DNA of 64,000 nt from an uncultured Nitrospiraceae bacterium (GTDB lineage: Bacteria; Nitrospirota; Nitrospiria; Nitrospirales; Nitrospiraceae), in contig CAWJWJ010000002.1 of the NCBI GenBank assembly GCA_963846575.1, forward strand, positions 2,464,001 through 2,528,000. Direction: 5' to 3'. Every line of letters begins with the position of its first letter. The stretch's first letter is position 1. The notes below the pieces were generated by a model. It saw only the letters and a list, made by a program, of their open reading frames with translations. It had not been told where the DNA came from and searched no databases. This document shows, piece by piece, positions 23,333 through 48,590 of the stretch. The translations under genes were made by a program, and so were the position numbers.

Positions 23333-25117
23333 CTACATCACCTTCCCCTTTTTCTTGTTGGCTCGACGTGTCAACATCCAACCTTCCAGAAGTACAACAC
23401 CAACCGCGATAACGGCCGGATAAATGTAGACTTCCTGAGGTATCGGGGGTTGCAAGATGGTGTAATAAAAGGCAGAGACGGCCATTTTCCGTCCGGCATC
23501 GCCGTTATGCCCATCCCAGGCAAAGAAAACCATCGGGATGTACTTGCCAACGTCAAACCGGGTGTATTCGTCATAGTCGTCCTTATCACCCTTAAGTGGG
23601 CGGGAGATCATGACGGTCCACTGACCATTCTTCCACTCAGCCTTCAGTACCTTCACTTTTTCTTCAAAATCATCGCGCTCTTCAAAATCCTGATCCCACC
23701 CGGTCCCTAAGAAGGAACGCAGCGAACCATCCGCTTCCCACTTAAGAATGTCCGCATGAAACTTGGCGTCACCCCACAAATATCTGGGCTTAAAGGGTGC
23801 AGGGATCTCCTGCCATTTAATCGGGAATTGGAAGGCAATTCCGTCGTTATACACCGAATAGTTATTCTGGTGCGCAGCAATAGAACCTTCTTCACCCGTT
23901 TTCGGAGCCTGCTCCTTAACGCCGAAGTTCTCAACGTTGACCTGCGTCGGTGCCCAAGGCAACTTGCCCTCCGCAACACTCTTCGTCCGGTCGTCCCACT
24001 GGATGAGATAGACAACGTTCTTTTCGTTGTAGAGTGATTTGACCCAGATATCATCAATACGATTCACGAAATTCCGTGGCTTATGTGTGATCTGTCCGCC
24101 CATAGCTACGTAGCGACGACCCTGTTTTTTCCACATTTCATTCTCAGGGTCATCTGAGATCTCCCCTTCAACAGGCGCCGAAGGGATAACGAAATTGATC
24201 TTGGGTTTATCCGTCAGCGGGTCGATGCCAAGAGGTTTCCCTTCCACATCCCGCTCACACAACGAATTGACGAAGTTGGCAATATCCCATCGCTCTTCAA
24301 CAGTCGTGTTATCCGCGAATGACGGCATTGGGGTACCGTTCACACCGGTCGAAAATGTCCGGAAAATGTTACGCACGTTGTAAGGATCTTGCCGACTGCC
24401 ACGGAAATTCCAGCACTTGTGCCAATTTGCCGGCTGGATGGAAAATCCCCAGTCGTCTTTTAAATTGAAGGCATTGCCGTCTCCGCGCCCCTCGACGCCA
24501 TGACACTCGATACATTTCCTATCAACAATCAGTGCGGCGCCTCGCTTGAGACTTTCTTCATTTGCTTCAACAGGTTTGATAGTTCCAAGTTGAAGAATAG
24601 TTTGCGACTCAGATTCCTTGTCGGTAAACTTCCGATCTTTGACCAACTGGGTGGTCACGAATGACAAGACCTGGATCCGTTGCTCCTCGGATAAAATGCC
24701 TTCCCATGGAGGCATGGCAGACCCAGGAAGTCCGTGCGTAACTGTGTCAAAAAGGTCATTCTTTCCGGAATCGGCATTCATTTCGTTATAGTTAAACAAT
24801 GGCAATTCGCCACTTGCCGTGTGGCGAATTTTGAATGTCCCCTGGTTGAAGTTTCTGGGACGAGGCCACAGCCGATCAGCACCAGGACCATCCCCGGCGC
24901 CATCGACCCCGTGACACCAGACACACTTAGTAAAGTAGACCCGCTTACCAGCCTCGATCATTTCGGCTGGCGGAGGGGGAGCCAATTCACCAGCCTTGAA
25001 CCCCGCTGGCAAATCTGAGGCACTCACCATACCCGTCATACTAGTCGAGTACAACAGTGCACCTAGTGCCGCTCCGATCACCAGAGACGGCTTTCCGATC
25101 GTACGAAGTTTACTCAT
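23333..25117 (-). CDS. Di-heme cytochrome c fused to an EbdC-like domain with C-terminal TM anchor (alternative NxrC candidate)
   Basis: Signal peptide, CVWCH and CIECH, EbdC-like WKNGQWTVMISRPL and FFAWDG, and a C-terminal TM. Start MSKL at 25117 after GAGG. Confidence 0.85.
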   Translation of the reverse strand: MSKLRTIGKPSLVIGAALGALLYSTSMTGMVSASDLPAGFKAGELAPPPPAEMIEAGKRVYFTKCVWCHGVDGAGDGPGADRLWPRPRNFNQGTFKIRHTASGELPLFNYNEMNADSGKNDLFDTVTHGLPGSAMPPWEGILSEEQRIQVLSFVTTQLVKDRKFTDKESESQTILQLGTIKPVEANEESLKRGAALIVDRKCIECHGVEGRGDGNAFNLKDDWGFSIQPANWHKCWNFRGSRQDPYNVRNIFRTFSTGVNGTPMPSFADNTTVEERWDIANFVNSLCERDVEGKPLGIDPLTDKPKINFVIPSAPVEGEISDDPENEMWKKQGRRYVAMGGQITHKPRNFVNRIDDIWVKSLYNEKNVVYLIQWDDRTKSVAEGKLPWAPTQVNVENFGVKEQAPKTGEEGSIAAHQNNYSVYNDGIAFQFPIKWQEIPAPFKPRYLWGDAKFHADILKWEADGSLRSFLGTGWDQDFEERDDFEEKVKVLKAEWKNGQWTVMISRPLKGDKDDYDEYTRFDVGKYIPMVFFAWDGHNGDAGRKMAVSAFYYTILQPPIPQEVYIYPAVIAVGVVLLEGWMLTRRANKKKGKVM

Positions 25118-25164
25118 TGTTAACCTCACCACCTGTTCTCCCAGGTTGTTTTTAAAAATCCCGA

Positions 25165-26202
25165 TTAATCCCATGTCCGAGGATAGTATCCTGTGTGCCA
25201 GTATTCGAACAGGATGACTTTCCAGATTTCATCAGTTGTCAGATGCTGTTCCCATGGCGGCATGACAGAGGCCCAAGGAAAGCCTTCGTTCGGCAACCCA
25301 ATGCCCCCCTTAGCCACCCGCCAAAAAATGAATGTTTCCTGCAGCTGTGCAATGGTGCCTGGGTCGGTAAAGTTGGCAGGAATTGGGTTGAAAGCGAAAG
25401 CATGCAACCCTCGGCCGTTTAGATTGTCACCGTGGCAGAAATGACAATTCTGGAAAAATATCTCTCCGCCCTCTCGGACGTACTTGAGGTAACCCTCAGC
25501 CTTATCATCCCACGGATTGGCATTAGGAGCCATCAACCGCCCCATGGACTGCTCAACGATTAACTTATTGCTATACTCCTGATCGTATTTCCCCTCAGGA
25601 TTCACACGGTATGGATTCTGGGATGTTTGCAAGGTGTAGGTCTTGCCGTGAACCTTGGTGCTGGCGGGCGGTGCAGGATGCACTGTACGAAGCTCGATCG
25701 GTTCATCAATGCTCGGCTTCATCGTCAAGAACGAGAACCCTCCGATAAGCAAAGGCAAGAGGATCAAATACATCGTACGAAGTGCCTTATGGAACCCGGT
25801 GTTGGCATCCAAGACGTTGAGTATTGGTTGGCGAAACTTTTTCCAATCTTCCTCGTTGGCAGATACCCACATAAAGACCGCCACAAACGACACCGTTCCG
25901 TACATCGCCCGCACGCTGAAGGGAATTGGCGGATAGATGCGGAACTTAAGGTACGTTTGTATAAATACCCAGAATAAAATTCCCTGCCAAAAACGAGGGA
26001 ATGCAATCCCCATCGAATTCAGCAGGTAACTGAGACCTGCAAAGCCAGCCACGAACATGGCCAACTCACTTAATACCTGCATGGGCATGTAGCCCTCAAC
26101 GAGCCTGACGGTATTCGATGGGACGACTCCGAAGATCATTCCGATCAACACGAGTAGTCCCGCGACACCAATCAGCGCCCCGACTGACATTAAAGCTTTC
26201 AT
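25165..26202 (-). CDS. Membrane-bound mono-heme cytochrome c
   Basis: About 5 N-terminal TM helices, CHFCH, and a distal SVMPPW. Confidence 0.88.
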   Translation of the reverse strand: MKALMSVGALIGVAGLLVLIGMIFGVVPSNTVRLVEGYMPMQVLSELAMFVAGFAGLSYLLNSMGIAFPRFWQGILFWVFIQTYLKFRIYPPIPFSVRAMYGTVSFVAVFMWVSANEEDWKKFRQPILNVLDANTGFHKALRTMYLILLPLLIGGFSFLTMKPSIDEPIELRTVHPAPPASTKVHGKTYTLQTSQNPYRVNPEGKYDQEYSNKLIVEQSMGRLMAPNANPWDDKAEGYLKYVREGGEIFFQNCHFCHGDNLNGRGLHAFAFNPIPANFTDPGTIAQLQETFIFWRVAKGGIGLPNEGFPWASVMPPWEQHLTTDEIWKVILFEYWHTGYYPRTWD

Positions 26203-26253: not shown

Positions 26254-27567
26254 TTAAGATGCCTTGGGCGGCTCTTTCCCTTCCTGCACCTGCGAGAGGT
26301 AATCTACAATTTTCTTCAATGCACCCGCGCTGAGCTTCTGGCCGAACACCTTGGGCATGGTGTTGTCCGGGAAGCCCTTTACAACATACGCGCTAGGCTC
26401 AATGATGGATTCCATGATGTAGTCAGGTACGCTTTTGGCCTTACCTTTGTATTCCTTATCCTTGATCCGAAGTGGCGCATTGGTTCCTTCAACCAGCTTC
26501 GGCCCGATCGTTCCAACCGCGCCTGCAATACCGGGTATGGTATGGCAAGCTACGCATTGACCTTTGGCAAAAATCTGGTCCACGGGTTCAGTTCCGTCTG
26601 CCATCAACGCGCTGGCGCCTGGCTTGGCATCACCCTCTGTTGGTGGCTTCGGGCGATCGGATTCTGGGATGAACTTCTCATACGACTTCACGATCTCATC
26701 GAAACTTGGCGCGTCACGTCCCTCACGGACATAAAGCCACGTGTCTACAGCCGCCAGTTCAGGTAAAGACAATGAAATTGGTGGCTTATGGATTGCCGGC
26801 ATCGGGCTTTCCTTATCGTTGGTGCCTTTGACTCCGTAACCAGCAACCACGAAACAGCTTGGACAGGCGTGTGACTCCGCAATATATTCCTGCGCATTTT
26901 CGGCGGTACCGGACCCAGGAAATGCCTCTTTTTGGTTCGAGTCACGAGCGGCAGGGTTTCCCTTGTGGTATCGGGGATCTTCAAGCTGTGTGGTAGCGCG
27001 CTCCGGAAGTCCATCTAAGTTTGGAGCTCGCTCACCCAACATACCTTTGTGAAACGCATGGCAAAGCGGACACTGTCCCTTACCGATCGCGCCCTGAACT
27101 TTATTCTGCCCAACGCCACCGAAGATGATTTTCTCGCCCTCATCCGCGAGTTCGGTCTGAGGCATATTGCTGAAATCTTTTTTCTCTTCAACGGGTGGGA
27201 ATCCACCTTCCACCTGAGGCAGCCAGTTACCATAGCCTGAGAGCGCTGCTGCGATGAAGAACATGAATCCACCGATTTTCAGGAGAGCGCTGATATTCGT
27301 AAAATAAAGCGCCATCATGAATGCCATTGAGGTGATCAAGACGAGAGAAACAGGCAACAGTCTTGATTCCGCGAAGAAGTTCATTTTGTAATTGGCAATG
27401 GCCATGAAGAGGAGCATAGCCCCAAGTATGCCGATAAATGTCTTGAAGACCGCGCGCTTATTGGCGACGGGGTCAGAAATCGAGGCTTTGAAGTAAAACA
27501 TTAGGGCAACGAGGATGCCCAGTGCAGGCCATCCCATTGCCAAGCCCGCTTGTATGAGTTCAATCAC
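26254..27567 (-). CDS. Membrane-bound di-heme cytochrome c
   Basis: About 4 TM helices, GQCPLCH and GQCVACH with distal SPMP and NTMP, and a GTG start after GGAGG. Confidence 0.88.
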   Translation of the reverse strand: MIELIQAGLAMGWPALGILVALMFYFKASISDPVANKRAVFKTFIGILGAMLLFMAIANYKMNFFAESRLLPVSLVLITSMAFMMALYFTNISALLKIGGFMFFIAAALSGYGNWLPQVEGGFPPVEEKKDFSNMPQTELADEGEKIIFGGVGQNKVQGAIGKGQCPLCHAFHKGMLGERAPNLDGLPERATTQLEDPRYHKGNPAARDSNQKEAFPGSGTAENAQEYIAESHACPSCFVVAGYGVKGTNDKESPMPAIHKPPISLSLPELAAVDTWLYVREGRDAPSFDEIVKSYEKFIPESDRPKPPTEGDAKPGASALMADGTEPVDQIFAKGQCVACHTIPGIAGAVGTIGPKLVEGTNAPLRIKDKEYKGKAKSVPDYIMESIIEPSAYVVKGFPDNTMPKVFGQKLSAGALKKIVDYLSQVQEGKEPPKAS

Positions 27568-27652: not shown

Positions 27653-29573
27653 TTAGTGACCAACCGCCGGAGCTGCTGCCCTTCCTGGCACAGCGGCTTT
27701 TGCATCGACGGGTGCCTTCTTGGCGGCAAGGGCACCTAACCAGAACACAAACATAATAGTCGTCCAAAAGAACAACACATTAAATGAAATCATGTTGGCA
27801 GCGAAACCCACCGTATGCGTGTACGCCCACGGGAGAATTGTCCCGCATGATTTCATTGACATGCCAGAATAAGCGAACCGATGACCGAATGTATCCCATC
27901 AGTCCCATCATCCAGGTAAAGGCCGTTGCCAACATAATGAGGGCATACTGAGACCGGGCGGATATTTTACCCCATTCAATCGGCCCCATCTGCTTCGCCC
28001 CTTTCATCATGACGCTGTTGAGCGCGAACATGAAGAACAGGCATGACAATGTAGTGGCCACCTGCGGCACGGACAATCCAACTCGGACGTTGGCTGGAAT
28101 GTAATAGCCGTAAATGGCGAGCAGGATGATGTTGAGATATGCGAAGAAGAAGAAACAGCCCATAAAGATGTTACCGAACTTGGACCACGACACCGTTGAA
28201 ACCTTGTTTCCTCGCATATACCACACGAAGCTTAAGACGGTGGTAGTAATAATCACGTTGATTCCACCGTTCTTGGCGGACATAACACCGTAGTTCCCTA
28301 AGACTGGATGTTGCTGCCCTCCCATCGCCTTCAACTCAGCTGGCGTCATAACGATCGTGTGCGGGGTGATAAAGACCAGGAATCCGCACGTAAGCAAGAA
28401 CACCAGATACTTAATGTAACGTTGATACTTCTCAGCCCCGCGCATTCGACCAAGCGCCTGCCAAAGGTAATAATTGGTGCTAAGAAAAAGGATGCCGATC
28501 ATGGTTGCCTGAATAATAAACAACCAGGCCAACAATCCTCCCATCAAGGTAATTCCCATTTGCTGCCGATAGGCATACACCTCGCGCATCAACCAGTACC
28601 CTGCGAAGGGAAGCGGTATTAGGAACGAAACCCCGAGGGCCATGGCGATATAGCCCATCCAGTCGTAATGAGCACGCTCCTCATCGGTCTTGGCTGACAG
28701 GAACCGGTATGCCGCATAAGCTGCGACGACACCGCCACCAAACGCCATGTTGCCGAGAATACGGTGCAGATTCAGCGGATTCCACAAGGCAGTATGGATG
28801 ACGTGCCAGATGTTACCGAGATAACGACCCTGCTCATCGACTCCCGCGGGTGACATCATGAAACCGATCCACGAGTTGGCGAGGAACATCAAGATCGTAC
28901 CAATGACATTCAAGACAACGGACATACTGAGGTGAATCCATTTCAGGAATCCCTCCTTCATCTTGTCCCAGCCATAATAATAAATGTAGAGCGTCCCACT
29001 CTCCGCCACGAACATCAAAGCATAGATGTGCATGACTGGCCTAAAGATGCTCGACAGATACTGGAAGAAGGCCGGATAGAGCGTCAGGAAGGTGAAGATC
29101 AGGATCCCCCCCAGAATGGCCGTCAAGGAGTACGCAGTCAAACTGATCTTGACGAAATCATACGCCAGCTGATCGTAACGCTTCGCCAAGGCCTTATCCT
29201 TACTCACGACCCCCATGAACTCGATGATCATACAGAAGATCGGCACGGCTAAAACGAAACTGCCGTAATAGAGATGCTGCTGGTTCGCGAACCACAGCAA
29301 AACCCGACTCTCGAAGTTATAGCGGGGGTAGTCCTTGTCACTATCGGTAGTCTTTGGAGCCGGAGGGCCCGAGACAATCCCTTCCGTCTTGTAATAAACA
29401 TCCTTGCCCTTTTCCACCTTTGCATCACCGCCCTCTTTTTTCACTTCAGCAGCCGGCGCGCCACCGTCGCCGGCAAGGGCAGGGATCGCAACCAGAATAG
29501 GCAGGAGGAGGAGGCCGATCATCGCGCCCAGCGCCATGATCGACATCAACTTCGTGCGGGTTACAGAGCCCAT
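27653..29573 (-). CDS. Cytochrome bd-like oxidase subunit I (CydA-fold, Nitrospira type), paralog A, with one +1 frameshift near 27831
   Basis: CydA-like QQHLYYG (His), FVAES, ANSWIGFMMSPAG and LHRILG. The C-terminus WAYTHTVGFAANM.. continues in the next frame and matches paralog B (SPWAFTPSLGFAAKM). Repaired length is 639 aa. Confidence 0.88.
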
Positions 29574-29638: not shown

Positions 29639-29761
29639 CTACTTCCGCAGCAGATACCAAAAATCTAGCCCCTGCGCGTCCATCAGAAAGTGATCAACGG
29701 CTGCGAAAAATGAAACGCAGATCAACACTGAGACGACGAAATACACAATTGTTTGGCCCAT
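29639..29761 (-). CDS. Small single-TM protein (40 aa)
   Basis: Hand translation gives MGQTIVYFVVSVLICVSFFAAVDHFLMDAQGLDFWYLLRK*, with a GAGGGGGG RBS. It lies between the promoter and the bd-like gene. Confidence 0.75.
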   Translation of the reverse strand: MGQTIVYFVVSVLICVSFFAAVDHFLMDAQGLDFWYLLRK

Positions 29762-29810: not shown

Positions 29811-29927
29811 TCAGCATGGGCACTGAACCCCACCGAACCAATAGAAAAACCAAATACTGACTGCACAGGTGATGTAGAAAATCATTTTCCCTATTTTAAT
29901 TTTGACGTCATCCTGAGCAGCTTCCAT
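29811..29927 (-). CDS. Small single-TM protein (38 aa) ending in Cys-Pro-Cys
   Basis: Hand translation gives MEAAQDDVKIKIGKMIFYITCAVSIWFFYWFGGVQCPC*, with a GGGAGA RBS. Confidence 0.75.
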   Translation of the reverse strand: MEAAQDDVKIKIGKMIFYITCAVSIWFFYWFGGVQCPC

Positions 29928-30055: not shown

Positions 30056-30084
30056 ATTATAGTTTTGGCTGGAATGGTTGTCAA
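30056..30084 (-). promoter_or_regulatory. Perfect-consensus sigma70 promoter TTGACA-N17-TATAAT
   Basis: On the + strand, attata is at 30056-30061 and tgtcaa at 30079-30084, giving a 17 nt spacer. Confidence 0.88.
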
Positions 30085-30086
30085 TA

Positions 30087-31040
30087 TCATTTTGGCCGTG
30101 TTCCTAATCCTCTACTACTTTGATTTCCTATGATTTTCTTCGAATTTAGCGCGTCATCGGATATGCCGCGCTCAACCCGCGATTGCGCGCACCGGAAGCC
30201 AATGGTTTCATCACGAAAATCGAGCATCATTTTGCTGCGCGCGGTAATGCGCAGATCTGATCCGGCACTCGTGTATGCTGCTCCCCGCAAGACCTTGTAT
30301 GTGCCATATTCCGGGCTGGCTGAATTCCGCTCTTCGGATGCCGCATACGCATTCTCCTGATACCAATCGTCCACCCACTCCATCACATTGCCCGCGCCAT
30401 CCATCACTCCATAGGGACTTTCATCGCTCCGCACACTCCCGACAGGAGCAGCCACGTCAAAGCCGTCATCTACCCGAGCCCAGTTTGCGCCGTCTTGAAT
30501 CTCGACATTGCCCCACGGCCAAAGGCGCCCATCGGTCCCTCTCATAGCTTTCTCCCACTCTGCCTCGGAGGGCAATCGTCGGCCACGCCAAGCACAGTAG
30601 GCTTTTGCATCTTCCCACGATACGTAGACCACGGGTTGATTCACCCCTCGCATTCGGGCGGTATTCTTCGCGTACCGTGAGGGAGGCCCTGCCTTACGAT
30701 GGCCTGTGGCCTTCAGAAAGGCGGAGTATTGAGCGTTTGTCACTTCGTACCGATCGATGAAGAAACTATCGAGGTAGATTATCCGTTCAGGGCGCTCATC
30801 AAACCCTCCCCGACTTGTTCCACGCACGAAAGGCCCCGCAGGAATCTCCACAAGTTCCTCCTCGAGCGGTTCTTCGTCAGGTGACAGTTCAGCAGGTGGG
30901 TTCACGGCCACTTCGGCATTGTGAGGTGAATCCGCCTCAAAAGGCGTGGAGCTTGTTCCGCGGAGAATCGCTATGACAGGCAAACTGGCGGCGAAAAGCA
31001 CCACAAAGAGAAAGATAATTTTGAAGCGTGTTTCGAGCAT
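30087..31040 (-). CDS. Membrane-anchored FGE-sulfatase (SUMF1/NirV-like) domain protein
   Basis: YEVTNAQY, RLPSEAEWEKA, MDGAGNVMEW and IGFRCA, with an N-terminal TM. Confidence 0.9.
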   Translation of the reverse strand: MLETRFKIIFLFVVLFAASLPVIAILRGTSSTPFEADSPHNAEVAVNPPAELSPDEEPLEEELVEIPAGPFVRGTSRGGFDERPERIIYLDSFFIDRYEVTNAQYSAFLKATGHRKAGPPSRYAKNTARMRGVNQPVVYVSWEDAKAYCAWRGRRLPSEAEWEKAMRGTDGRLWPWGNVEIQDGANWARVDDGFDVAAPVGSVRSDESPYGVMDGAGNVMEWVDDWYQENAYAASEERNSASPEYGTYKVLRGAAYTSAGSDLRITARSKMMLDFRDETIGFRCAQSRVERGISDDALNSKKIIGNQSSRGLGTRPK

Positions 31041-31051: not shown

Positions 31052-31966
31052 CTACTTGGCCGGCACATCGGCGTCAACGTCCTTGGCGCAGCGAAAACCC
31101 ACGGTGATATCGTGCCGCCATGGTTTGGCCTGAAACCTCTTTGACGAACGGACATTTCGCTTCGTTTCCCGCCAGGAACCACCGCGAATCACTCGTTGTT
31201 CCCCCTGATCAGGCCCCTTCGGATCACGGTAGGGGGATTTGCGATAGGCGTTTTCATCGTAAAAATCCGCGACCCATTCGCCAATGTTCCCCGTCATGTC
31301 ATAAATCCCATAGGGACTGCGGCCTGCGTCAAACGATCCGGGCGGCGCCAGGTAGCGGTAGCCATCCTCAGTACCGTCGATATTCGCATACCCCACCACG
31401 AAATCTTCACCCCATGGATATCGCCGCTTTCCCTCTCCACGGGCAGCCTTTTCCCACTCCGCTTCGGTCGGTAGTCGTTTCCCTGCCCATTTGCAGTAAG
31501 CTTCCGCGTCATCCCAGGTCACTGCAATCATCGGGTTTTCCGGCTTAAGCAGTTTGGCGGGATCATCTTCAAAGACTTCGATCTTACGCTTGATCCGCTT
31601 CGTCATTTTGGCAAAGCGTTCATACGCATCCTGCGTCACTTCATGCTTATCGAAGTAGTACGACTTCAAATAGGCTTGGTGCTCCGGTTTTTCGTCTGGA
31701 TCACTGTCGTTATCACGACTACCCATCACAAATGGACCCTCAGAGATTTGCACCATCTCACGCCCGTCATCGCCGACGAGGGTCTTATACATGGAGAAAT
31801 CCTGCGCCACAGGCGCTGCAACTGTCTTCGTCTCTGTCGTAATAGACATCGCCAACTGACGCATCTGCTTGGCCTTGTAGGACTCATAGACCAATGCTCC
31901 AATCATCAGGATGAACGATGCAAACACAAAGATAATCGACCCGATGAGTACGCCCCTGTTTTCCAT
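31052..31966 (-). CDS. Membrane-anchored FGE-sulfatase (SUMF1/NirV-like) domain protein
   Basis: HEVT, RLPTEAEWEKAARG, YDMTGNIGEW, RGGSW and VGFRCA. Confidence 0.9.
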   Translation of the reverse strand: MENRGVLIGSIIFVFASFILMIGALVYESYKAKQMRQLAMSITTETKTVAAPVAQDFSMYKTLVGDDGREMVQISEGPFVMGSRDNDSDPDEKPEHQAYLKSYYFDKHEVTQDAYERFAKMTKRIKRKIEVFEDDPAKLLKPENPMIAVTWDDAEAYCKWAGKRLPTEAEWEKAARGEGKRRYPWGEDFVVGYANIDGTEDGYRYLAPPGSFDAGRSPYGIYDMTGNIGEWVADFYDENAYRKSPYRDPKGPDQGEQRVIRGGSWRETKRNVRSSKRFQAKPWRHDITVGFRCAKDVDADVPAK

Positions 31967-36629: not shown

Positions 36630-36650
36630 GTCGTGTTCAGCCTCTCCGTG

Positions 36651-37367: not shown

Positions 37368-37375
37368 GGTACATC

Positions 37376-39647: not shown

Positions 39648-41027
39648 TCACAATTTCACTGGATTAGACGAACGTTTCGGATGTGTGATAATCCGTGCAA
39701 TCGATCCTCCCGCCGTGGCTCGGACGGCATCGTCCTCATCGTGCAAAGCCTCCATCAAGATCGGCAGGACTTCAGCCCCTCCGATTTGCCCCAGCGCTCG
39801 GGCTGCGGCTATTCTGGGACGAGGGATTGGATCCTTCAACATGCCGGCAAGAAATGCGATGCCGGCCTTCGCGCTGGCACCATGAGCCCGACCCACTGCC
39901 TTACCTGCGGCGGAACGTGTTCCCGGATCGGTATTCTGCGCCAACTGATACAACTGAGTCCCGACGGCCTCGAATGGCTCACCCAGCCTCAATAGCGCTG
40001 ACACGACGGCAGCCTTGACGACCGGATTCGAATCATTCAATGCCTTTCTCAGGGCGACGCGGGCCTCCGGCGAACCCAGTTCTCCCAAACTGATCGCCGC
40101 CGAGGTCCTGACCGCAGCTATTTTGTCCTCGAGCGCATGCTCAACCGCTGGAATGCCCTGCACGTTGCCGAAATCTCCCAGGGCAGATGCAGCGGCCCCC
40201 CGCACAGATGGTTGTGTATGGGTCGCGGCTTCCAACAGTATCTCAAGTCCCCGCGAGTCCCTCAGTTCCCCGATCAACCGCAGCGCGGTGGCTCGCTCTT
40301 CTGGGTTTTGCGCCAATGCAGCCTGTCGAACCGTTTCCCACTTCGCCTTCTGCCCCATCTGGTAAAGCGCCCCGGCGGCGGCCAGCCGCACAGCCGGCTG
40401 CTCGTCCTTGAAGGCCTCCTCCAGCAACGGTATCACCGACCGATCGCCGTGTTTCCCCAGCACCTTTAGTACAGTCGCCTTCACCAAACCAGCCTGGTCC
40501 TCCAGGGCTTGGCGGAGTCGAGGCGAACGCCGGCCTGCTTCGAGTTTCCCAAGCGCCTCCGCGACTAGCGCTCGCACCAGGCCAGAACCATCACTCAATC
40601 CATCTTCCAGGTAGGGGATAGTTTCGGATGAATCCACATCCTTAAGAGCCGTATAGGCTGCGCCACGCATCTGTTCCCGCATATCTTTCACAAGAATCAC
40701 GACAAACCCTAGGGCGACTGCTTTCAGCAATCCCGGTTCCTCCTGCGTGACTTGCTCATACTCAGCTAGCGCCTCTTTCGGTTTGCCCACATGGATGAGT
40801 GAATGAATCTTCAGCCGCCTGGTTTCCTGTTGAGGTCCCTTCTCCGCGACAATCTGCTCGATGAGGTCCAGCGCCTCCTGATACTGTTTTCTGTCGAACG
40901 CCGCTTGCGCCTCCGTCACTGTTCGTGCCGAGGCGATTAATGGCCAGAGCACCACCAGCGCCACCAACAGAAGCGACAAGAGCATCCATCCATACGCCCT
41001 CGGAGTCGTTTTCAGTCGAGTCTTCAA
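39648..41027 (-). CDS. Exported HEAT-repeat protein
   Basis: Signal/TM followed by many L.D....VR..AA.ALG repeats. Confidence 0.88.
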   Translation of the reverse strand: MKTRLKTTPRAYGWMLLSLLLVALVVLWPLIASARTVTEAQAAFDRKQYQEALDLIEQIVAEKGPQQETRRLKIHSLIHVGKPKEALAEYEQVTQEEPGLLKAVALGFVVILVKDMREQMRGAAYTALKDVDSSETIPYLEDGLSDGSGLVRALVAEALGKLEAGRRSPRLRQALEDQAGLVKATVLKVLGKHGDRSVIPLLEEAFKDEQPAVRLAAAGALYQMGQKAKWETVRQAALAQNPEERATALRLIGELRDSRGLEILLEAATHTQPSVRGAAASALGDFGNVQGIPAVEHALEDKIAAVRTSAAISLGELGSPEARVALRKALNDSNPVVKAAVVSALLRLGEPFEAVGTQLYQLAQNTDPGTRSAAGKAVGRAHGASAKAGIAFLAGMLKDPIPRPRIAAARALGQIGGAEVLPILMEALHDEDDAVRATAGGSIARIITHPKRSSNPVKL

Positions 41028-41063: not shown

Positions 41064-41843
41064 CTACCCTCGTTCCTGCAGAGTGGACCCCGGAACCCAA
41101 CGTCTATATCCAGCGGGTTCATCAAAATAGTAGTCAGGCTGGGGAGAAAAACGGATACGCAGATATTCAATGGACCATTCCCGGTCCTGGCTCACCAGTT
41201 TCAAAACGACACCCGTCTCGGTATCCACCCATTCGTAAAATCGTTCCTTCCGGCCGTGATGATCAGCCCGCACCTCATAGAGCTTTGACGCACGGCCGAT
41301 CGTCGTGGCATCACCCACCAGAATTCTGCCGGTCTCTCCAGGAAGAGTAGGCTCAATGGGCAGGATGTCTTCGGACTTGACAGGCACCGCAAGAATTTCT
41401 CGACGCTGCGCCAACAAAAACCAGGATTCCTGTTTGTCCAGACGAATAATTTCTATGCTGGAATAACCGAGTTCTGTCTTCACCGCATACTTGTACTCCA
41501 AACGAAGCCGATCGCCCTTGGCGAAGACCTGGGCTTCGAAGCGACGCGCTCCCACATGCTTGACCAGGGAAGCCGAAAACTCTGTCTGCCTGGGAGACGG
41601 CGGCCTGTCTAGGGCCGCAGACGCAAGTCCAGCGTTGAGACAGAGACTCAGCAGCAGGCATCCTGCGACAACCTCCCGGGGAAGGCCGATCCCTGCACGT
41701 CTAGTGTTGATGCTCCACCAGTGGCTGAATCTCAATGTGGTGTCCAAGAGATTCCAGACCGAAACGCGGGTTATCCATGACTTTATAGGCCGTACGGTTC
41801 CCCTTCGGGGCCGGGAGTTCAACCTGTTCAGTCGTCGAGCCAT
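41064..41843 (-). CDS. Exported DUF4412/LolA-fold-like protein (true start uncertain, probably near 41700)
   Basis: Signal-like LLLSLCLNAGLASA, then FSASLV, IIRLDK, IGRASKLYEV, WVDTETG and FDEPAGY. Confidence 0.65.
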   Translation of the reverse strand: MARRLNRLNSRPRRGTVRPIKSWITRVSVWNLLDTTLRFSHWWSINTRRAGIGLPREVVAGCLLLSLCLNAGLASAALDRPPSPRQTEFSASLVKHVGARRFEAQVFAKGDRLRLEYKYAVKTELGYSSIEIIRLDKQESWFLLAQRREILAVPVKSEDILPIEPTLPGETGRILVGDATTIGRASKLYEVRADHHGRKERFYEWVDTETGVVLKLVSQDREWSIEYLRIRFSPQPDYYFDEPAGYRRWVPGSTLQERG

Positions 41844-42633
41844 CCGGAGCCACTGTTACAGTCCGCGTCACACCGGGCCCGGACTGCGGATGCCACACCA
41901 CCAGCTTATAGGTTCCTGGCGGCACGTCCTCAATGCTAAATCTGCCCTGATCATCCGTCACTGCATAGTACGGATTGTTGACGGCCATGGCCCAACTCTC
42001 CATATAGGCGTGAAACCCGCACTGCATGTAAAAAGTGCGCCGCCCCTTGTTCAGATAAATAGGCCCCACTAAAGATTTGCCGGGCGCGTGGTTATGAATG
42101 GCGTGCAGATCGCCCCGACGGTGCTGCTGGTTCAAGGTCAAGGGCGTATTGAACAACACGCGCGCTCCCGCTTCCGGGGATGTTTCATATCCTTGAATGT
42201 CGTGCATGACCGGGTCCATATTCACCACTTCAACCGCATGTCCATTGCGTACGATCGTAACCCAGGGCTGAAACATGCAATCACGCGCCTCAATGAGAGG
42301 AACTGACAGGTCAAATGGCTTGCCGGCCTCTACTCCTTCAAGTGTCACAATTGCATTCTTCAGTCCCCCCTCGGAATTGACCGTGAAGTCGTGCAGCAAC
42401 CGCCATCCTTTCCCGTTTGAGATCCGACCGCAGTAGGCGGGATCGGGAAAGGTGATCAGGTTAAACCCCTTCGGCTCCGGGACTTCCCCGGACAGGATCA
42501 CTCGACCGTCGAGCGTACCCCCGTGCTGGACGTCAATGACGTCGTAGGCACCGACCGTCGGAACGAGAGGACAGAGCCAGGCTGTGAACGCAAACGCGGC
42601 CATACGAAGCATGTGTGATAGAGTGAACCTCAT
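41701..42633 (-). CDS. Exported carboxypeptidase-regulatory-like/cupredoxin-like protein (copy 2)
   Basis: Signal peptide, NMDPVMHD, CGFHAYM and DVPPGTY.VVWHP. Start MRFT at 42633. Confidence 0.8.
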   Translation of the reverse strand: MRFTLSHMLRMAAFAFTAWLCPLVPTVGAYDVIDVQHGGTLDGRVILSGEVPEPKGFNLITFPDPAYCGRISNGKGWRLLHDFTVNSEGGLKNAIVTLEGVEAGKPFDLSVPLIEARDCMFQPWVTIVRNGHAVEVVNMDPVMHDIQGYETSPEAGARVLFNTPLTLNQQHRRGDLHAIHNHAPGKSLVGPIYLNKGRRTFYMQCGFHAYMESWAMAVNNPYYAVTDDQGRFSIEDVPPGTYKLVVWHPQSGPGVTRTVTVAPDGSTTEQVELPAPKGNRTAYKVMDNPRFGLESLGHHIEIQPLVEHQH

Positions 42634-42658
42634 AAGTCCCCCATAGTGGTGCGCTGGC

Positions 42659-43600
42659 TTACGGATTTTGAACTTGCAAGGTCGGCCGAATGTCGACGAC
42701 CTTACCGAGGGATTCTGGTCCGTAGTGTGGATTCTCGGCGATCTCGTGGGCACTTCGCCGCCCTGTCGGAGCCTCGAACGAAAAATCGACCGTGGAGACG
42801 CCTTTCTCAGTAACAGTCACCCTCTTCTGCAGAATGGTTCCAACACCGGGATGCCACGCCAAAAGGGTATACTCGCCGGGAGGCACATCGGTCAGCGTAA
42901 AGGCTCCGCCCTCACCAGTCATGGCATAGTAGGGATTATCGACCGCAAATCCCCAGCTTTCCATGTAGGCATGAAATCCGCACTGCATGACGAACATTCT
43001 TCTCCCTTTGGTCATATGGATGGTTTCCTTCACCGGTTGCCCGGGGAGATGCTCATGGCTCTCTGCATTCACCCGTCGCGTGTGGTGGGGATTCATCGGC
43101 AGCGGAGTATTGAACAGCACCCTCGGGCCGAGTTCGGACGTTTCATAGGCCTGAATGTCGTGCATCACGGGATCCATGTTCGTCACGACCACGTCAGACC
43201 CATTTTTCACGACCGTGACGAAGGGAAGAAATCGACAATCGCGGGCCTCAATCGTCAACGGTTCGAAGCTGAAGGGCTTCCCCTTCGTCGCATCAGCCAG
43301 CAAGACCACCGCATCCTTCAGTCCATCGCCTGCCGTCATAGAAAATTCATCGAGGATCCGCCAACCCGTTCCGGTTGAAATCCTGCCGCAATAGACCGGG
43401 TCAGGAAACGTGATCAGGTTATATCCCTTCGGAGTGGGCTTCCCCCCTGTCATTGTGACAGTACCCGTAACACTCCCGCCATCCGTGACCGCGATCTCTT
43501 CATAGGCCCATAAGGGAGACCAACAGACAGCGACGGTCCAAAACATGGCAAGACCAACGGATCGCATGACGTCCCTCCAAGCAAGCCGAACAATGGCCAA
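42659..43600 (-). CDS. Exported carboxypeptidase-regulatory-like/cupredoxin-like protein (copy 3)
   Basis: Tandem paralog of copy 2 (NLITFPDP.YCGRIS, NMDPVMHDIQ, CGFHAYMESW). Confidence 0.8.
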   Translation of the reverse strand: MAIVRLAWRDVMRSVGLAMFWTVAVCWSPLWAYEEIAVTDGGSVTGTVTMTGGKPTPKGYNLITFPDPVYCGRISTGTGWRILDEFSMTAGDGLKDAVVLLADATKGKPFSFEPLTIEARDCRFLPFVTVVKNGSDVVVTNMDPVMHDIQAYETSELGPRVLFNTPLPMNPHHTRRVNAESHEHLPGQPVKETIHMTKGRRMFVMQCGFHAYMESWGFAVDNPYYAMTGEGGAFTLTDVPPGEYTLLAWHPGVGTILQKRVTVTEKGVSTVDFSFEAPTGRRSAHEIAENPHYGPESLGKVVDIRPTLQVQNP

Positions 43601-43723: not shown

Positions 43724-46700
43724 TTACTTTGCCGCAACAGGAACCGCTTGAACAGTCGGCTGTTCAACCGCGGCACTCTTCGCGCCAGCACTTGCTCCCG
43801 CCAATGGCAACAATCGTGTATCGCCGGACGGCAATACCCTGACATAGCCCCACTGGCCGGACTGCGAGTACGGCAACCGCTGATTGCTATACACATAGTC
43901 ACCAGGCAGACGGTAGGGACCACCTGCCGAGGAGATGAACGCGTCGAGCACTTCTGAACCGGAGTATTCGACCACACTGATTTGATCGGCTCCTCGCATG
44001 AACGGCTCGATCGGCCATTCGTGCTTCTCTACGCTGAACATCCCGTTCTGCTCATTGCTGACACCCAGCACATGGATCCGTACCGGGTCTCCGGCATGGG
44101 TCTCGATGATGGGGGTCGCCGGATCCTCAGGCTTGTCCGCTTTGCAAGGTTGGAACACCTTGCCCAACGAACAGCCCTGCTCTTCACGGAACTTGTAGGG
44201 TTCGGACCGGTAGTTCACACCGGTCAAACCAGCCACATTCTGGACGTACGGCATAAAGCTGGTGCCGATGATGTTGTCCTCGTCCTGGAAGAACAAGGCC
44301 ACATCGCGATAGTTGGCGCGCAGTTCATTGCCTGGCACTGAACGGTCGATGATCACATCGGCTGCCCAGGCGTTCTTATTGGAAAGGTCCGCACCGGTCT
44401 TGGGATCACGATATTTCGATCCCTTCGGACCGACGACAACAGCGCCGAACAACCCGTTCCGTGGATTGGTCATCACATTCCCCCAATCCCACACCAATGA
44501 CGTCGTCTCCCCATTGAACGGATCTGCATAATACGTGTAATCGCGCTCACCTCCTGGGGCAATGGTCTGATCACCGGGGTTATTGCCCACGTTCGCACCC
44601 AACGAATCCTTGGGATCGAAGGCCAAACCGATTGCAGAGAAGGAGGCTCTGCTTTCCTTCATTTTGTTTTTCAGATGCACCTTCACGCAATCACCGGTAT
44701 TCACACGGAGCGTCAGCGGCATCGGATGCGTTCCGGCTGCCACCTTGGCCGTGTCCTCCTCCAAAGCATAGATCTTGGCTTCGGAATTGGTCATGAGGAT
44801 CTTGCGTTCAAAGTCCACCTCGATTTCTTCCGGCGCATTCGCATTGAACTTCATCCCCGGATAGTCCATCGCGACGACGTTGAAGGATTTCACCGGAGCG
44901 TCAGCAGGACATATCGGTAGAGTTTTCGGAATATCCCCCTTAAGCGAATACCCAGCAGGCAGTTTCTTCAGATCAGCCTGCTCTTTATCCAGCACGCGAA
45001 TGATTCCCCAGCCGCCCTCTGAAAACTTCGAGGATCGACCGTTGAAGTGAATGTAGTCACCGGCCTGGTGACGCGACCCACCTGCTGCAGGAACCACCAG
45101 GTCGTACCGCTCGGCGATGCCGATATGAATTGAGTTCTTCCGATTGGCATCTGATGCGTATCGCTCCGTCCAGAACGTATGGCCGGACAGGGTCCAGACC
45201 ATCGATTCATTCATGAGCGTGTGCAGCAGCCGGAACACCATCGTGTCTCCGACATAGGCCCGCAAGGTCGGCGTGTACGGATCGCCGTGAACCTGGCTGC
45301 TGAATGCCTGTGACACATCTGGGTTGGTCGCCAACCGCTGCGCGATCGGTGCCGCCCTGAAGTTCAGGCCGCTCCCGGTCGTATGAGTCCCACCATTCAG
45401 AAACGGCATGGGGGTCATGTAGATTTTCTCGGGCATCATAAAGGATACGGTTTTGCCTGCCTCGAGCGCCACTTCGATCGGCTGCCCTGGAGGATTACCG
45501 GCCGTCACCACGTTCACCGTGTGCGGCACGGTGTCATGCACTTGCACCATCAGCTCACGGAAGCTGTTGTTCACGCCATGACCAACCGGCTCGTTCGTGT
45601 GAATGTCCGCGATCGGACCGCTGCGGATTAACTTCCCGGTCTTCGGATCATGGTAGGTCGATCCAACCGGCTCCGCGATGAAGGTTCCGAACCCACCGTG
45701 CGGCCACGTGGTCGCACCAAACGCGTGGTCGTGCCAGAACACCGTCCCCACGTCCGCATCGACCCAGAACCGCTGCCGCACGAACTCCACTGTCACGATA
45801 TCGTTGACCGGGTGATCATGCTTCAGACCCTTGGCCAGCGTGATCGTATTGCCCTTGATGGCCTTGATGCGGGAAAGTTCATTACCTTTCACATTGTCGG
45901 CCCCAACGAGGATGAGGGTCCCAACATGGTACTGCTTGGCATTTTTCACGGTAATGCTCGTCGCACCCTTCTTAGCCGCGGCGCGTAAAGACCGTGTTCA
46001 TCGGGACAGGCAGTCCCTTCGGATTCTTCTTTTCCAGCATCGTGAACGGACGCACCGACTGTTCATAGGAGAACCCGGTGATCACACCGTCTGACGCTTG
46101 GTTATCGAACTGCAAGAAATGCCAGTGGGTATTGATCTTCGACGACTGGAAGTTGGTGTAGTCGTCGTCATCCCACTCGCTGGTCAAAGTCCAGTCCACG
46201 CAATCATAAATATTGCCGCGAACCACCAGCGGATACTTGAGATCATCGTTTTTCCGGACTTCGGCTTCTTCTTCATGCAAGACATAGATCAAGCCGTTCG
46301 GATCAACAACCGGCGGTTCCTTGCCTGTTTTCTTGGCAATGGTGATCGGCAGCTTGATGAAGTGAACATTGAAGCTCTTCTGTCCGGCGTTTTCAGGGCA
46401 GAGACTCCAATTCCCGTTCTCGCCTGGTATTGCCTGCTCAACGCTTTCCTCGCCATTGGCCTCCCGACGGATCATTTCCAGCCAGGGCGCGCCCACATGG
46501 TTCGGGGAGAACATCACGCGCTTCCCGAAATGCGGGGTAAGGTGCGGCCAGGCAACCTTACCTGTCAAAGGCTCGAAGGTGATCGGATGCCGTTTGCCTG
46601 GATGAGTCGACTTGTATTTAGGATTGTCGATCGTGCTTTCAGGCTCGCTCATGGCACGGGTACCTTCCCAGGCCCAAGGAAGAACCGTGGCGTCGTACGA

Positions 46701-48590
46701 CACAATCTGACCCTTCTCGTCATCCTTGTGTCCCGGCTTACCCATGGTCGGGAGCTGCATCTCAACCCAGTCCTTGATGTTGATGGTGGCTGGGTTTGAC
46801 TTCCAGTCACTCTTGCCCTTCTCGACGATCTTGAAGGACTTGCCGAACCAATCCACGGTCTGACCCACTAATTTGTCCGAGGTGATCGGAGCACGGATGC
46901 GGCCCTTCCGATCAGGCAATTCGCGCAAATCCGGCATGACGTCATTGCGCATGTCGCCCTGCTGAAGCGTGTTGTAGACCCTCCAGTAGCCCCACATTCC
47001 TGCGACATAGTGGTGCGCCACGTGGCAATGGAAGAGAAAGTCGCCAGCCAGCTGCTGACAGAGGCCGGAGCCGCACTCGGTTTCGAGATCCAACGCTTCG
47101 GACGGACCGATCACTTCAACGTCAACCCGGTCGCTTTTCGCACGGATCACCGGATACTTCACCGGTCCGTTGACGGCGGTGGTCCACAAGTTCATGTCAT
47201 CGATCGCGCGCGGGCTTCGCGGCCACCGGATCGTGCCGCCGTGGGGATGGTGGCTGTGGAATACTTCGGATCCACCATGCACCAGTCGGAACTTCGCCGG
47301 GTCGCCCATGTAGGAACGGGGAATCGTCGGGGACGCGTCGCCGAAGGTATAGGAGCTATACCCCATGGACTCATCTTCAAAGCCGAAATATTCGTGTTGA
47401 ACATGCATGTTGTTGATACCGAAAGGCTCGCTGCGATAATTGATCGCACGGCCACCCGGACGATAGGCGTCCGTCAGCGGATCACGCTGTGGCAGGAAGT
47501 CGCCCTTCTTATTGACCGGGCGGAAAGCCTCGTCACCGACCTCGTGATACATCAGAACGAATTCGCGAAAGTCAGGTCCCGTCCCGTTCTTGATGATGAC
47601 CTGCCACCCGCTGGCGGCGGGGGTGGGATCACCCGTGCCCAATGGTTCGAAATATTCAGAGCCGCGCGGCTCGACGATGAACGAACCGAAGAGTCCCATC
47701 ACCGTCAATTCGCGGTCATTGGCGAACGTATGGAACTGCCGGACGCCCTCCTGCGTGCTCGGATGGATGTACCACTCAAACTCCCCGCTCTTCTCAGCCG
47801 GCACGATGCTGTCGGAGTTGGTCGTGGCGGCCGGGGCACCGGTTGCACTGACGACCATGCTGGAGCCGTGAATGTGCAGACTGACATCCTCGCCACCTTC
47901 CAGCTTATTGCTCAGCTTAATCTTGAGGCAATCTCCCTGGTTGGCTCGAATTGCCAATGGTTGAATCCACTGGGCCTGCACACCTGGAATCACTGCGCCC
48001 GGATCGAAACCGTCTACCTCGCGCGCCGTGCGGTTCTTTTCTTCCTCCGCGCGGACCTTTTCGAGATTCTCATCCAGCGTGTACATGTAACCGGGATAGA
48101 AATCGAGCCACTGGTTGAGGGTGATTTCGACGTTAATCGCGGAGATGTTGTACTGCCTCACCGGAGCGGTAGCCGGACACTTGCCGCCATTGTTCATTGC
48201 CACCGGTTCCACTCGCGGATCGGACATCAAGAGGAGGTCCTGGCCGCCTGCTCCATACTGGTGCATCATGGTCTGGGTGTTGAACATACCCGTATTGACC
48301 TGCTGCACCTGCGGATCTTGGGCCAGATGGTCCATGATGCGCTGATGTTGCTGTTCCACCATGGCAGAACGCTCGGACTTGCCAACGATCGCATCTTCGA
48401 CGATCGTTTGCCCCTTCAGCTGTTGTGCCCATGTGGGTAAATTATGCGACATCGCCGTCTGTTGCGGCGCCACATGATCCGCATGCGACTGGTTCTCAGC
48501 CGACGCGGCCAGCGGCAGACACACGAGCGCACCACCAGCGATGACGGTGAGCGCGCGCGTTGTGACACGGGTTAACCAATGACGATCCAT
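43724..48590 (-). CDS. Large exported multicopper oxidase (MnxG-like, about 1621 aa repaired), split by a +1 frameshift at about 45983-45989
   Basis: Cu motifs HIHG, HSHHPHG, HCHVAHHYVAGM and HWH lie in the 872 aa ORF, and WHDH lies in the 741 aa ORF. Removing one base joins PMNTV to AAAKKGATSITVKNAK. Confidence 0.88.

Follow-up and report, generated by a model that had tools for sequence, protein, structure and literature searches.

A Nitrospirales gene block with a giant multicopper oxidase, three cupredoxins and two bd-like proteins: candidate carriers for electrons from nitrite oxidoreductase

Introduction

In Nitrospira and Nitrospina, the route that takes electrons from nitrite oxidoreductase (NXR) to oxygen is an open question of nitrification, as is the return path to quinone that serves the fixation of CO2. 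These bacteria are without a standard cytochrome c oxidase. The subject here is a block of genes at positions 23333–48590 of a 64,000-nt stretch of DNA from an uncultured Nitrospiraceae bacterium (assembly GCA_963846575.1, contig CAWJWJ010000002.1, positions 2,464,001–2,528,000), termed the window. It encodes a giant multicopper oxidase (MCO), three predicted type-1 (T1) copper proteins (Cup1, Cup2 and Cup3), two proteins with similarities to cytochrome bd subunit I (bd-like_3 and bd-like_4), and three membrane cytochromes c, the last of which is a candidate alternative NXR gamma subunit (alt-NxrC).

Genes of this type have been described before. In Mundinger 2019 a cluster with high transcription is made up of alt_NxrC_2, bd-like_3 and two membrane cytochromes c, and bd-like_4 is a duplicate a few genes away in all Nitrospira. 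The cluster is given there as conserved in Nitrospina and anammox bacteria, and as one that may anchor NXR and reach the quinone pool; a physical association of alt-NxrC with NxrAB is also proposed. The bd-like protein is described as lacking quinol-binding residues (Lücker 2013), and both papers propose quinone interaction and reverse electron flow. In anammox bacteria, the nxr cluster encodes several blue copper proteins, and the dihaem cytochrome Kustd1711 was measured at about +350 mV (JBC 2024).

The initial annotation of the window read the whole block as one copper relay, running from the NXR gamma subunit through cytochromes c and blue copper to an O2-reducing bd-like module. The copper-relay idea is partly supported, and the function of the block is unproven. 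What stands is that the cupredoxins are real by prediction, that Cup genes lie beside bd-like/cytochrome c/cytochrome c/NxrC-like units in independent lineages, and that Cup3 and the MCO are expressed like the bd-like_3 unit; the claim of a single system is not supported.

The reading preferred here is held tentatively, at a little under an even chance. The block would comprise three or more units with expression of their own, in a gene neighbourhood conserved among Nitrospirales. The bd-like_3 operon and Cup3 would bring electrons from periplasmic NXR to the membrane, where quinone is a more probable acceptor than O2, and the MCO with Cup1 and Cup2 would form a separate, predicted O2-reducing periplasmic unit.

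Expression of the block genes

Transcript levels in N. moscoviensis are given as fold over the median in the Table_1 rows of Mundinger 2019. In these rows alt_NxrC_2 (NITMOv2_3640) has a value of 48.6 and ranks 17, and Cup3 has 44.5 and ranks 20 in the transcriptome. The dihaem cytochrome c (33.2), bd-like_3 (27.1), the other cytochrome c (26.7) and the MCO (19.7) follow, and a second MCO (NITMOv2_3987) has 45.7. Eleven other block genes are at 1.6–4.5. Neighbouring genes of the block thus differ 10- to 30-fold, and the bd-like_4 transcript is about 10 times lower than that of bd-like_3.

The published proteome of N. marina (Data Set 1 and Data Set 3 rows; low O2 is about 5.6 uM) gives a similar list. 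By normalized spectral abundance factor (NSAF), Cup3 is highest among the block proteins looked up (0.29–0.39), with alt-NxrC at 0.26–0.29, the dihaem cytochrome c at 0.22–0.30 and bd-like_3 at 0.15–0.19. The block MCO has 0.19–0.20 at atmospheric O2 and 0.11–0.12 at low O2, and DUF420 about 0.01. The bd-like_4 ortholog has values of ~3–5 at atmospheric O2 and 0 at low O2 in Data Set 1.

The MCO isoforms respond to O2 in opposite directions in the same data. Spectral counts of the block MCO go from 438/432/432 at atmospheric O2 to 281/230/245 at low O2 (0.6-fold), and those of a 1627-aa paralog, whose neighbour is a Cup-like protein, from 33/42/12 to 503/409/436 (16-fold; log2FC 4.0, adjusted P 1.6e-18). 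The word “multicopper” is absent from the main text of Mundinger 2019 and of the N. marina paper. The stoichiometry of Cup3 with the bd-like_3 unit and the switch of MCO isoforms with O2 are present in published data and apparently undiscussed; they are the leads of most use here.

Very high expression in the two species is limited to the bd-like_3/cytochrome c/alt-NxrC unit, Cup3 and the MCO. The middle genes (bd-like_4, Mem361, PCP_red, DUF420, methyltransferase, DUF3047, Gly-zipper and FGE-like) show low expression. The block is not one operon or a single transcription unit. A stoichiometric pair of bd-like subunits, as the initial annotation had it, is unlikely because the bd-like_4 transcript is about tenfold lower and its protein falls to 0 in N. 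marina. A bd-like_3/bd-like_4 heterodimer was rejected on these expression data together with the absence of bd-like_4 from the block place in one group of the order (f4, see below).

An exact -35/-10 consensus lies between FGE2 and mini38 (Table 1). It is found at the equivalent place in all ten loci of relatives from groups f1–f3, where it is the sole exact match in each, and is the predicted start of the bd-like_3 operon. Only this exact site is used here, as the promoter scan overall gave 6 sites against 10.2 expected; the terminator scan gave 16 against 17.9 expected.

Gene order and recurrence

The order sample consists of 41 Nitrospirales genomes, all of which were matched by a bd-like_4 query, and about 35 kb around bd-like_4 was compared in ten genomes. 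The full order, from the amino-acid permease or the MCO to ArgRS, is kept in all six same-genus genomes fetched, in both f3 genomes (with two extra FGE-like genes and Cup2 missing) and in G028, one of two f2 genomes. In the other f2 genome (G037) the MCO-Cup1-Cup2-Hyp259-HEAT stretch is missing from the block place and is found intact 1.2 Mb away.

The placement of the MCO and bd-like_4 was counted in the wider sample, where pairs on one contig are 9–14 kb apart. Among 24 same-genus genomes, 17 have both on one contig (~9–11 kb apart), six have them on different small contigs of fragmented assemblies, and one gives no data. For f2 (six genomes) the counts are four on the same contig, one on different contigs and one truly apart; for f3 (five genomes), four and one on different contigs. 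None of the five f4 genomes has both on one contig, and the MCOs lie elsewhere. Group f4 keeps only FGE2-mini-mini-bd-like_3-cytochrome c-cytochrome c-alt-NxrC-MobA, and is without bd-like_4, Cup3, DUF420 and the methyltransferase at the block place. FGE2 adjoins bd-like_3 even in f4 and in G134.

The uneven expression, the moved MCO unit of G037 and the genes missing from f4 do not fit one joint system.

A bd-like_3 match at E <= 1e-30 is present in 50 of 151 Nitrospirota genomes drawn. Outside the order, the bd-like/cytochrome c/cytochrome c/NxrC-like unit recurs, whole or cut by a contig end, in seven of nine non-Nitrospirales genomes; in the other two, G059 and G046, the locus is too short for a judgement. 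In G077 and G163, and with two copies each in G071 and G132, a Cup-family gene precedes the bd-like gene directly or at 1–3 kb.

Five anammox genomes were reached by a 16S probe scan, and four of them have bd-like_3 homologs. Kuenenia hertensis, a Brocadia and AMX3 have the order Cup-bd-like-cytochrome c-cytochrome c-NxrC-like, and so has Scalindua at one (C12) of its two loci; the Cup gene is directly upstream of the bd-like gene in all four. Weak homologs of the PCP_red protein are near the anammox, G077 and G071 units. The initial annotation had suggested such a synteny check across Nitrospirota and anammox bacteria. The Cup/bd-like part recurs in it, and the MCO has no match in the five anammox genomes.

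Gene order within Nitrospirales is in itself weak functional evidence, because the housekeeping flanks are equally syntenic. This raises the alternative that the order is inherited, with no functional coupling beyond the four-gene bd-like_3 operon. The ArgRS, MobA-like and amino-acid permease flanks and the wide expression differences between neighbours speak for it. It is nevertheless very improbable, given that Cup and bd-like genes adjoin in distant lineages whose neighbourhood is otherwise different, and that MCO and Cup genes adjoin again at paralogous loci.

The bd-like proteins and their cytochromes

Both bd-like proteins match Pfam Cyt_bd_oxida_I only in its first part, bd-like_4 over model positions 2–247 and bd-like_3 over 2–241 of 418. 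The Q-loop half of CydA (positions 248–418) is unmatched in both, so that neither is a full-length match to CydA. No block protein matches the CydB family in Pfam. The two CydA-fold paralogs of the initial annotation are present, with a partial match for each.

In an alignment with the host genome's own canonical CydA, the His of transmembrane segment (TM) 1, the Glu of TM3 and the His of TM5 are shared. There are in addition three invariant His residues (in TPH, QHP and WHV) that are absent from canonical CydA. This triplet is kept in 39 of 41 bd-like sequences, i.e. in every bd-like_3, bd-like_4, probable bd-like_2 and anammox homolog; it is missing in bd-like_1, and one His is replaced in G180. 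These histidines could bind a further haem or a CuB-like metal.

The anammox homologs agree in all six columns (H, E, H, H, H, H), as does a further protein of the host genome (termed G000 in locus labels), at G000:C2:119706-121220. By its position this protein is probably bd-like_2, the published terminal-oxidase candidate. It sits in a paralogous bd-like/cytochrome c/cytochrome c/NxrC-like unit.

In a quick tree bd-like_4 is sister to bd-like_3 within Nitrospirales plus G134, and has longer branches; on this evidence bd-like_4 is taken to be a faster-evolving duplicate of bd-like_3. All six same-genus bd-like_4 sequences have Thr in place of the TM3 Glu, which is kept in the bd-like_4 of f2 and f3 and in every bd-like_3. 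A PDB sequence search with bd-like_4 gave no match.

The three membrane cytochromes c have two, one and two CxxCH motifs. The haem domain of the dihaem cytochrome has a relative in the PDB, entry 7zs0 (“Hypothetical (Diheme) protein”; E 1.1e-11). The EB_dh domain of alt-NxrC is recognised by PF09459 with 47.7 bits (cut-off 33.3); its score with TIGR03477 is 58.6 bits, under the cut-off of 169.85.

A reading of all the block genes as a single terminal oxidase system with a copper relay is rather unlikely. In it, electrons would go from NXR-gamma over cytochromes c and blue copper to O2-reducing bd-like proteins, and the remaining genes would serve copper and haem assembly. This reading draws on the host genome, which is 99.93% complete and has no COX1 match, i.e. 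no haem-copper oxidase subunit I, as the initial annotation had anticipated (the same search was positive in 9 of 14 named genomes used as a control). The bd-like proteins are also standing terminal-oxidase candidates in Nitrospirales and Nitrospinales, bd-like_3 and bd-like_4 have the six H/E columns in common with the probable bd-like_2, whose locus has the same layout, and Cup3 is as abundant as the bd-like_3 complex in N. marina.

Against this, the unit with identical residues, five His and one Glu, is present in four anammox genomes, which argues against O2 reduction by bd-like_3 and so against an O2-reducing bd-like module. Expression across the block is uneven, bd-like_4 at one tenth of bd-like_3 is a poor stoichiometric partner, and f4 keeps the bd-like_3 unit only.

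The FGE-like proteins do not fit a role as copper factors either. True FGEs carry a catalytic, copper-binding cysteine pair. Both block proteins match the FGE-sulfatase Pfam domain (E 7e-58 and 8e-55), and cysteines within the domain are limited to one in A-Y-C-x-W and one in the final GFRC. Both thus appear to lack the pair, as judged from the motif known for true FGEs.

Cupredoxins

All three Cup proteins have the Cys-x2-His-x2-Met motif. All 21 aligned sequences have H147, C194, H197 and M200, and the four ligands are kept in 30 of 32 Cup sequences when anammox bacteria and other Nitrospirota are included; the exceptions are one Gln for Met and one Ser for Cys. An AF2 model of Cup3 (21 aligned sequences) has a pLDDT of 85.8, and Foldseek relates it to amicyanin, plastocyanin and purple cupredoxin (prob 1.0, TMt 0.57–0.71). 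Cup1 and Cup2 are 27–31% identical to Cup3 by alignment, the fold model being that of Cup3. By ligand conservation and predicted fold, the blue-copper proteins of the block are real cupredoxins and predicted copper binders.

The Cup proteins encoded next to bd-like genes have the motif C-D-x-H-x-W/F-M in common with Cup3 (CDQHEFM), and Cup1 and Cup2 have CGFHAYM. The matching NSAF of Cup3 in N. marina, the Cup genes upstream of bd-like genes and this shared motif make Cup3 the likely partner that supplies copper-based electron transfer to the bd-like_3 complex.

A protein search with Cup3 gave at least 120 matches, and those listed are all close Nitrospira relatives at 74–95% identity. The closest named homologs are from Nitrospira, and in a protein atlas Cup3 is found in Nitrospirota clusters only. 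The PDB sequence search with Cup3 gave nothing below E 0.1.

Inside Cup2, at 41925–41991, 65 bases are missing from one contig of sequencing run X2 (depth 8.7; 38 letters on its shorter side), which may reflect a variant in the population or an artefact.

The giant multicopper oxidase

The two halves of the MCO match MnxG (PDB 9bxa) with E-values of 1.5e-57 and 3.2e-70. Their scores with the MnxG equivalog NF041487 are 55.3 and 98 bits, and the cut-off is 3100; the similarity is thus below equivalog level.

Residues H460, H463, H465, H536-C537-H538, H542, H837, H839, H968 and H970 (G020 numbering) are invariant in nine of nine full-length homologs, in the motifs H-x2-H-x-H, H-C-H-x3-H, T-H-W-H and W-H-D-H. 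The T1 Met, five residues past H542, is read from the printed motif HCHVAHHYVAGM and was not scored as an alignment column. The family is thus predicted to keep one complete T1 site and a trinuclear cluster with its eight His.

The MCO, Cup1 and Cup2 behave as a unit of their own, both in movement, as in G037, and in duplication. After the MCO paralog of G001 come a Cup1-like gene and two FGE-like genes, and in G030 (f4) a Cup gene is 3 kb from an MCO. A second giant MCO is present in the host genome itself at G000:C2:2840307-2845010, with an intact 1641-aa frame and 76% identity; no Cup or FGE neighbour is detectable there at E < 1e-4. A third paralog, which has Cup and FGE neighbours in many relatives, was not found in the host genome.

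An MCO_C query at E <= 1e-5 matches none of the five anammox genomes and 41 of 41 Nitrospirales genomes. The complete ligand set, the lack of a match in these anammox genomes and the response of the N. marina paralog link the MCO unit, by prediction, to O2.

The MnxG-like MCO was named by Lücker 2013, who proposed a defence against reactive oxygen species (ROS) through Mn(III). In Pacific metaproteomes a Nitrospinae MnxG-like protein is the group's second most abundant oxidoreductase and was read as a Mn oxidase (Saunders 2022). It anticorrelates with O2 (r = -0.47), co-occurs with NxrA at low O2 (r = 0.64) and is correlated with catalase in oxygenated waters (Saunders 2022).

On these grounds the MCO unit may be a periplasmic metal oxidase of Mn(II), Cu(I) or Fe(II) that serves oxidative-stress defence or metal homeostasis and is not wired to NXR, with Cup1 and Cup2 as accessory proteins. 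The homology of both halves to MnxG, the ROS proposal, the correlation with catalase and the separability of the unit from the bd-like genes favour this, as does the consideration that a periplasmic MCO could not conserve energy from nitrite. It is unlikely on balance. The equivalog scores (55 and 98 bits) are far below 3100, and the proteins that constantly accompany the MCO are T1 cupredoxins, a class of electron-carrying proteins, with no MnxE/F-type gene recognised. Both as transcript and as protein, the MCO is as abundant as core respiratory proteins, and a respiratory link would agree equally well with the O2-dependent exchange of paralogs and with the co-occurrence of NxrA at low O2.

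A stronger form of such a link would make the giant MCOs, with dedicated blue-copper partners, the missing haem-free O2-reducing branch: electrons would go from NXR over alt-NxrC, cytochromes c and Cup proteins to the MCO, in two or three isoenzymes swapped by O2 supply. This is considered improbable.

Two one-base insertions

One extra G at 45984, seen in a DNA alignment with relatives, divides the MCO into two ORFs (872 and 741 aa) that are out of frame with each other, so that the copper ligand residues are distributed over two ORFs in the window. Full-length syntenic matches in relatives have a single frame of 1532–1696 aa, as compared with 757 aa in this assembly. A related-strain contig (run X4) is without the extra base.

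In bd-like_3, one extra base near 27830 removes the last helix, which continues in ORF 27653–27862; in relatives this protein has about 640 aa and no internal stop. Relative to three or four relatives both inserted bases are G, and the sites are within 18 kb of each other in highly conserved, highly expressed genes.

The near-identical runs X1–X3 have depth 0 in the bin that holds 45984; in the bin of 27830 one of them has depth 0.9, with no indel listed. The run search listed no RNA run for the window, and the best DNA run shares 0.27 of its words.

Assembly errors are more likely than private mutations, because both genes are otherwise highly conserved. Programmed frameshifting was considered and rejected, the relatives being all in frame.

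Proposed electron routes

In the preferred reading periplasmic NXR would be the electron donor to the bd-like_3 unit, and Cup3 would shuttle electrons at high potential. The bd-like haem protein would then pass them to quinone, an uphill step paid for by the proton-motive force. Cup1 and Cup2 would feed the T1 site of the MCO. The genes for bd-like_4, Mem361, PCP_red, DUF420 and the O-methyltransferase may together form a variant of low abundance that has cofactor or assembly genes of its own.

The mini38-to-alt-NxrC unit, together with Cup3, is ancient, highly expressed and present in anaerobes. It is for this reason that entry of NXR electrons is suggested as its role, with quinone a likelier acceptor than O2.

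Several points weigh against this reading. Sequence does not separate a “quinone” form of the bd-like protein from an “oxidase” form, because the probable bd-like_2 also has the extra invariant His residues, and a bd-like terminal oxidase was proposed for Nitrospinales according to Mueller 2023. The Cup tree leaves the orthology of Cup3 to the anammox Cup proteins undecided. The expression data are all from other species, the N. moscoviensis Cup3 being 77% identical to that of the block. ArgRS and the MobA-like gene keep their order across f1–f3, and the amino-acid permease within the genus. Published readings of the MCO, in the sources cited above, favour Mn(II) oxidation or ROS defence, and with a periplasmic MCO the energy of nitrite oxidation would presumably not be conserved. 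A real insertion at 45984 would break the MCO of this strain between two of its copper motifs, HxH and WHDH.

The comparison narrows the candidates: it places Cup3, as a likely copper partner, with the bd-like_3 complex, and sets the giant oxidase with Cup1 and Cup2 apart as a separate O2-responsive unit. The block proteins are among the most abundant in the cell in the two cultured species.

Other genes of the block and its surroundings

Every long ORF in the block is on the minus strand. All genes named by the initial annotation for this co-directional 25 kb block were found, by ORFs, Pfam, NCBIfam and motif counts, and there are seven further conserved genes: TPR/HEAT, the 259-aa exported protein, the O-methyltransferase, the PCP_red/4-Cys protein, the 361-aa membrane protein, DUF3047 and the Gly-zipper protein. 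Features are listed in Table 1.

Table 1. Features of the block, in order of transcription (positions in the window).
Feature	Position	Strand	Description
Giant MnxG-like multicopper oxidase (MCO)	43724..48590	-	ORFs 45972-48590 (872 aa) and 43724-45949 (741 aa); Pfam Cu-oxidase_3/_2
Cup1	42659..43600	-	Exported, cupredoxin-like, then CarboxypepD_reg-like beta-sandwich; motif CGFHAYM
Cup2	41701..42753	-	Cup1 paralog, C-terminal CarboxypepD_reg-like domain; true start probably near 42633
Hyp259	41064..41843	-	Exported 259-aa protein; weak DUF4412 lead
TPR plus HEAT-repeat protein	39648..41027	-	HEAT_2 E 3e-56; N-terminal hydrophobic segment
Cup3	38642..39439	-	Exported type-1 blue-copper-like protein; motif CDQHEFM
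Family-2 O-methyltransferase, weakly BchU-like	37376..38365	-	Methyltransf_2 E 5e-20, Dimerisation E 2e-12; without signal peptide
DUF420 (CtaM family) membrane protein	36651..37367	-	66.2 bits, cut-off 30.5; 6 hydrophobic helices
PCP_red protein, cytoplasmic, 166 aa	36129..36629	-	N-terminal 4-Cys motif and two PCP_red domains; PF08369 E 2.8e-24
Mem361, 361-aa membrane protein	34968..36053	-	Stop overlaps bd-like_4 start by 4 nt
bd-like_4	33103..34971	-	Pfam Cyt_bd_oxida_I, partial match (see text)
DUF3047 protein, exported	32416..33102	-	Pfam
Gly-rich (Gly-zipper) membrane protein, 130 aa	31981..32373	-	Sequence features
FGE-sulfatase-fold protein 1, membrane-anchored	31052..31966	-	Pfam FGE-sulfatase
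FGE-sulfatase-fold protein 2 (FGE2), membrane-anchored	30087..31040	-	Pfam FGE-sulfatase
Sigma-70 consensus TTGACA-N17-TATAAT ahead of mini38	30056..30084	-	12/12 positions match
mini38, 38-aa single-helix protein	29811..29927	-	Conserved ORF, one hydrophobic helix
mini40, 40-aa single-helix protein	29639..29761	-	Conserved ORF, one hydrophobic helix
bd-like_3	27653..29573	-	ORF 27780-29573 and displaced C-terminus in ORF 27653-27862
Dihaem cytochrome c	26254..27567	-	4 N-terminal helices; CxxCH at 166 and 338
Monohaem cytochrome c	25165..26202	-	3 helices, one CxxCH
alt_NxrC_2-type protein, 613 aa	23333..25174	-	Two CxxCH, then EB_dh (NxrC/EbdC-like) domain, then C-terminal helix

The mini-proteins were detected by tblastn in 10 of 10 and 8 of 10 loci of relatives. 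Hyp259 gave no family match in Pfam or NCBIfam; in the protein atlas DUF4412 is found in 10% of the members of its cluster, a weak lead. Mem361 was considered as a hidden CydB; fold searches gave no CydB or other clear match: Foldseek had no match at E <= 0.001, and the best hits of a wide structural search (Z 7.7) are unrelated helical proteins. The O-methyltransferase has 66 bits with TIGR02716, under the family cut-off. At 36129–38365 the BchU-like methyltransferase, PCP_red (derived from the protochlorophyllide reductase BchB) and DUF420 give a tetrapyrrole-handling flavour to the region beside bd-like_4. No Rfam family match was found within the window.

Downstream of the block and on the same strand are a radical-SAM/B12-binding protein (3652–5433), an EB_dh protein that is a likely NxrC candidate (5707–6720), a NarJ/TorD-like chaperone (6760–7785) and a 2x[4Fe-4S] ferredoxin (7947–8552). 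A second EB_dh gene lies just beyond the start of the window (G000:C2:2463118-2463741). Between the NxrC and chaperone genes and the block, at 10911–15574, are a sigma-54 response regulator and a large Cache/PAS histidine kinase.

Comparison with known systems

The Bacillus Mnx complex (MnxG, PDB 9bxa) is similar in having a multi-domain MCO, with homology along both halves. Unlike MnxG, the block MCO is about 400 aa longer and falls far below the equivalog cut-off; its partners are T1 cupredoxin/beta-sandwich proteins rather than MnxE/F, and Mn oxidation would be a putative activity.

Relays from a cupredoxin to a copper enzyme are known, e.g. from amicyanin, and from pseudoazurin or azurin to NirK. 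The C-x2-H-x2-M loop of the Cup proteins is of the amicyanin type, and here too a small T1 copper protein is encoded beside a T1-containing copper enzyme. The Cup proteins differ in having an added C-terminal CarboxypepD_reg-like domain and two further invariant Cys, and are putative electron carriers.

The cytochrome bd quinol oxidase CydABX resembles the block in the N-terminal half of CydA and in having small single-helix proteins beside the gene. It differs in that the bd-like proteins are without the Q-loop half, have no CydB match and carry three extra invariant His; their partners are cytochromes c and an NxrC-like protein, not quinol.

The closest systems are in Nitrospira itself, and the block is an already known gene neighbourhood, with gene content, synteny and the copper-carrier idea in print. 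The surmise of the initial annotation that the genes were probably annotated before is borne out, the same list being present in N. moscoviensis NITMOv2_3640-3660 and in the cluster of Lücker 2013. The N. moscoviensis locus, as given by Mundinger 2019, has the same gene list and order with a 4845-nt putative MCO; unlike it, the MCO and bd-like_3 each have a one-base insertion in this assembly.

The NXR-associated cluster in Fig. 6 of Lücker 2013 (Ca. Nitrospira defluvii, Nitrospina gracilis and Ca. Kuenenia stuttgartiensis) likewise has an alternative NxrC, mono- and dihaem cytochromes c, a bd-like protein, two cupredoxin-like proteins and a zinc-finger protein, and copper instead of haem carriers were proposed. 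The MnxG-like MCO is assigned in that account to Nitrospira and Nitrospina and not to Kuenenia. Its anammox part was found again in the genomes compared here. The present locus differs in that nxrAB is outside the block, and an EB_dh NxrC candidate with a NarJ/TorD-like chaperone is 17 kb downstream.

Copper carriers and the MCO are already in print (Lücker 2013; JBC 2024), and the joint copper-centred function suggested by the initial annotation is a putative one. Added here are the cupredoxin-bd-like-cytochrome c-cytochrome c-NxrC-like unit in four anammox genomes that have no MCO match, the separate movement and duplication of the MCO with Cup1 and Cup2, the complete T1 and trinuclear ligand set of the MCO, and the 16-fold rise of one MCO paralog at low O2 in N. 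marina.

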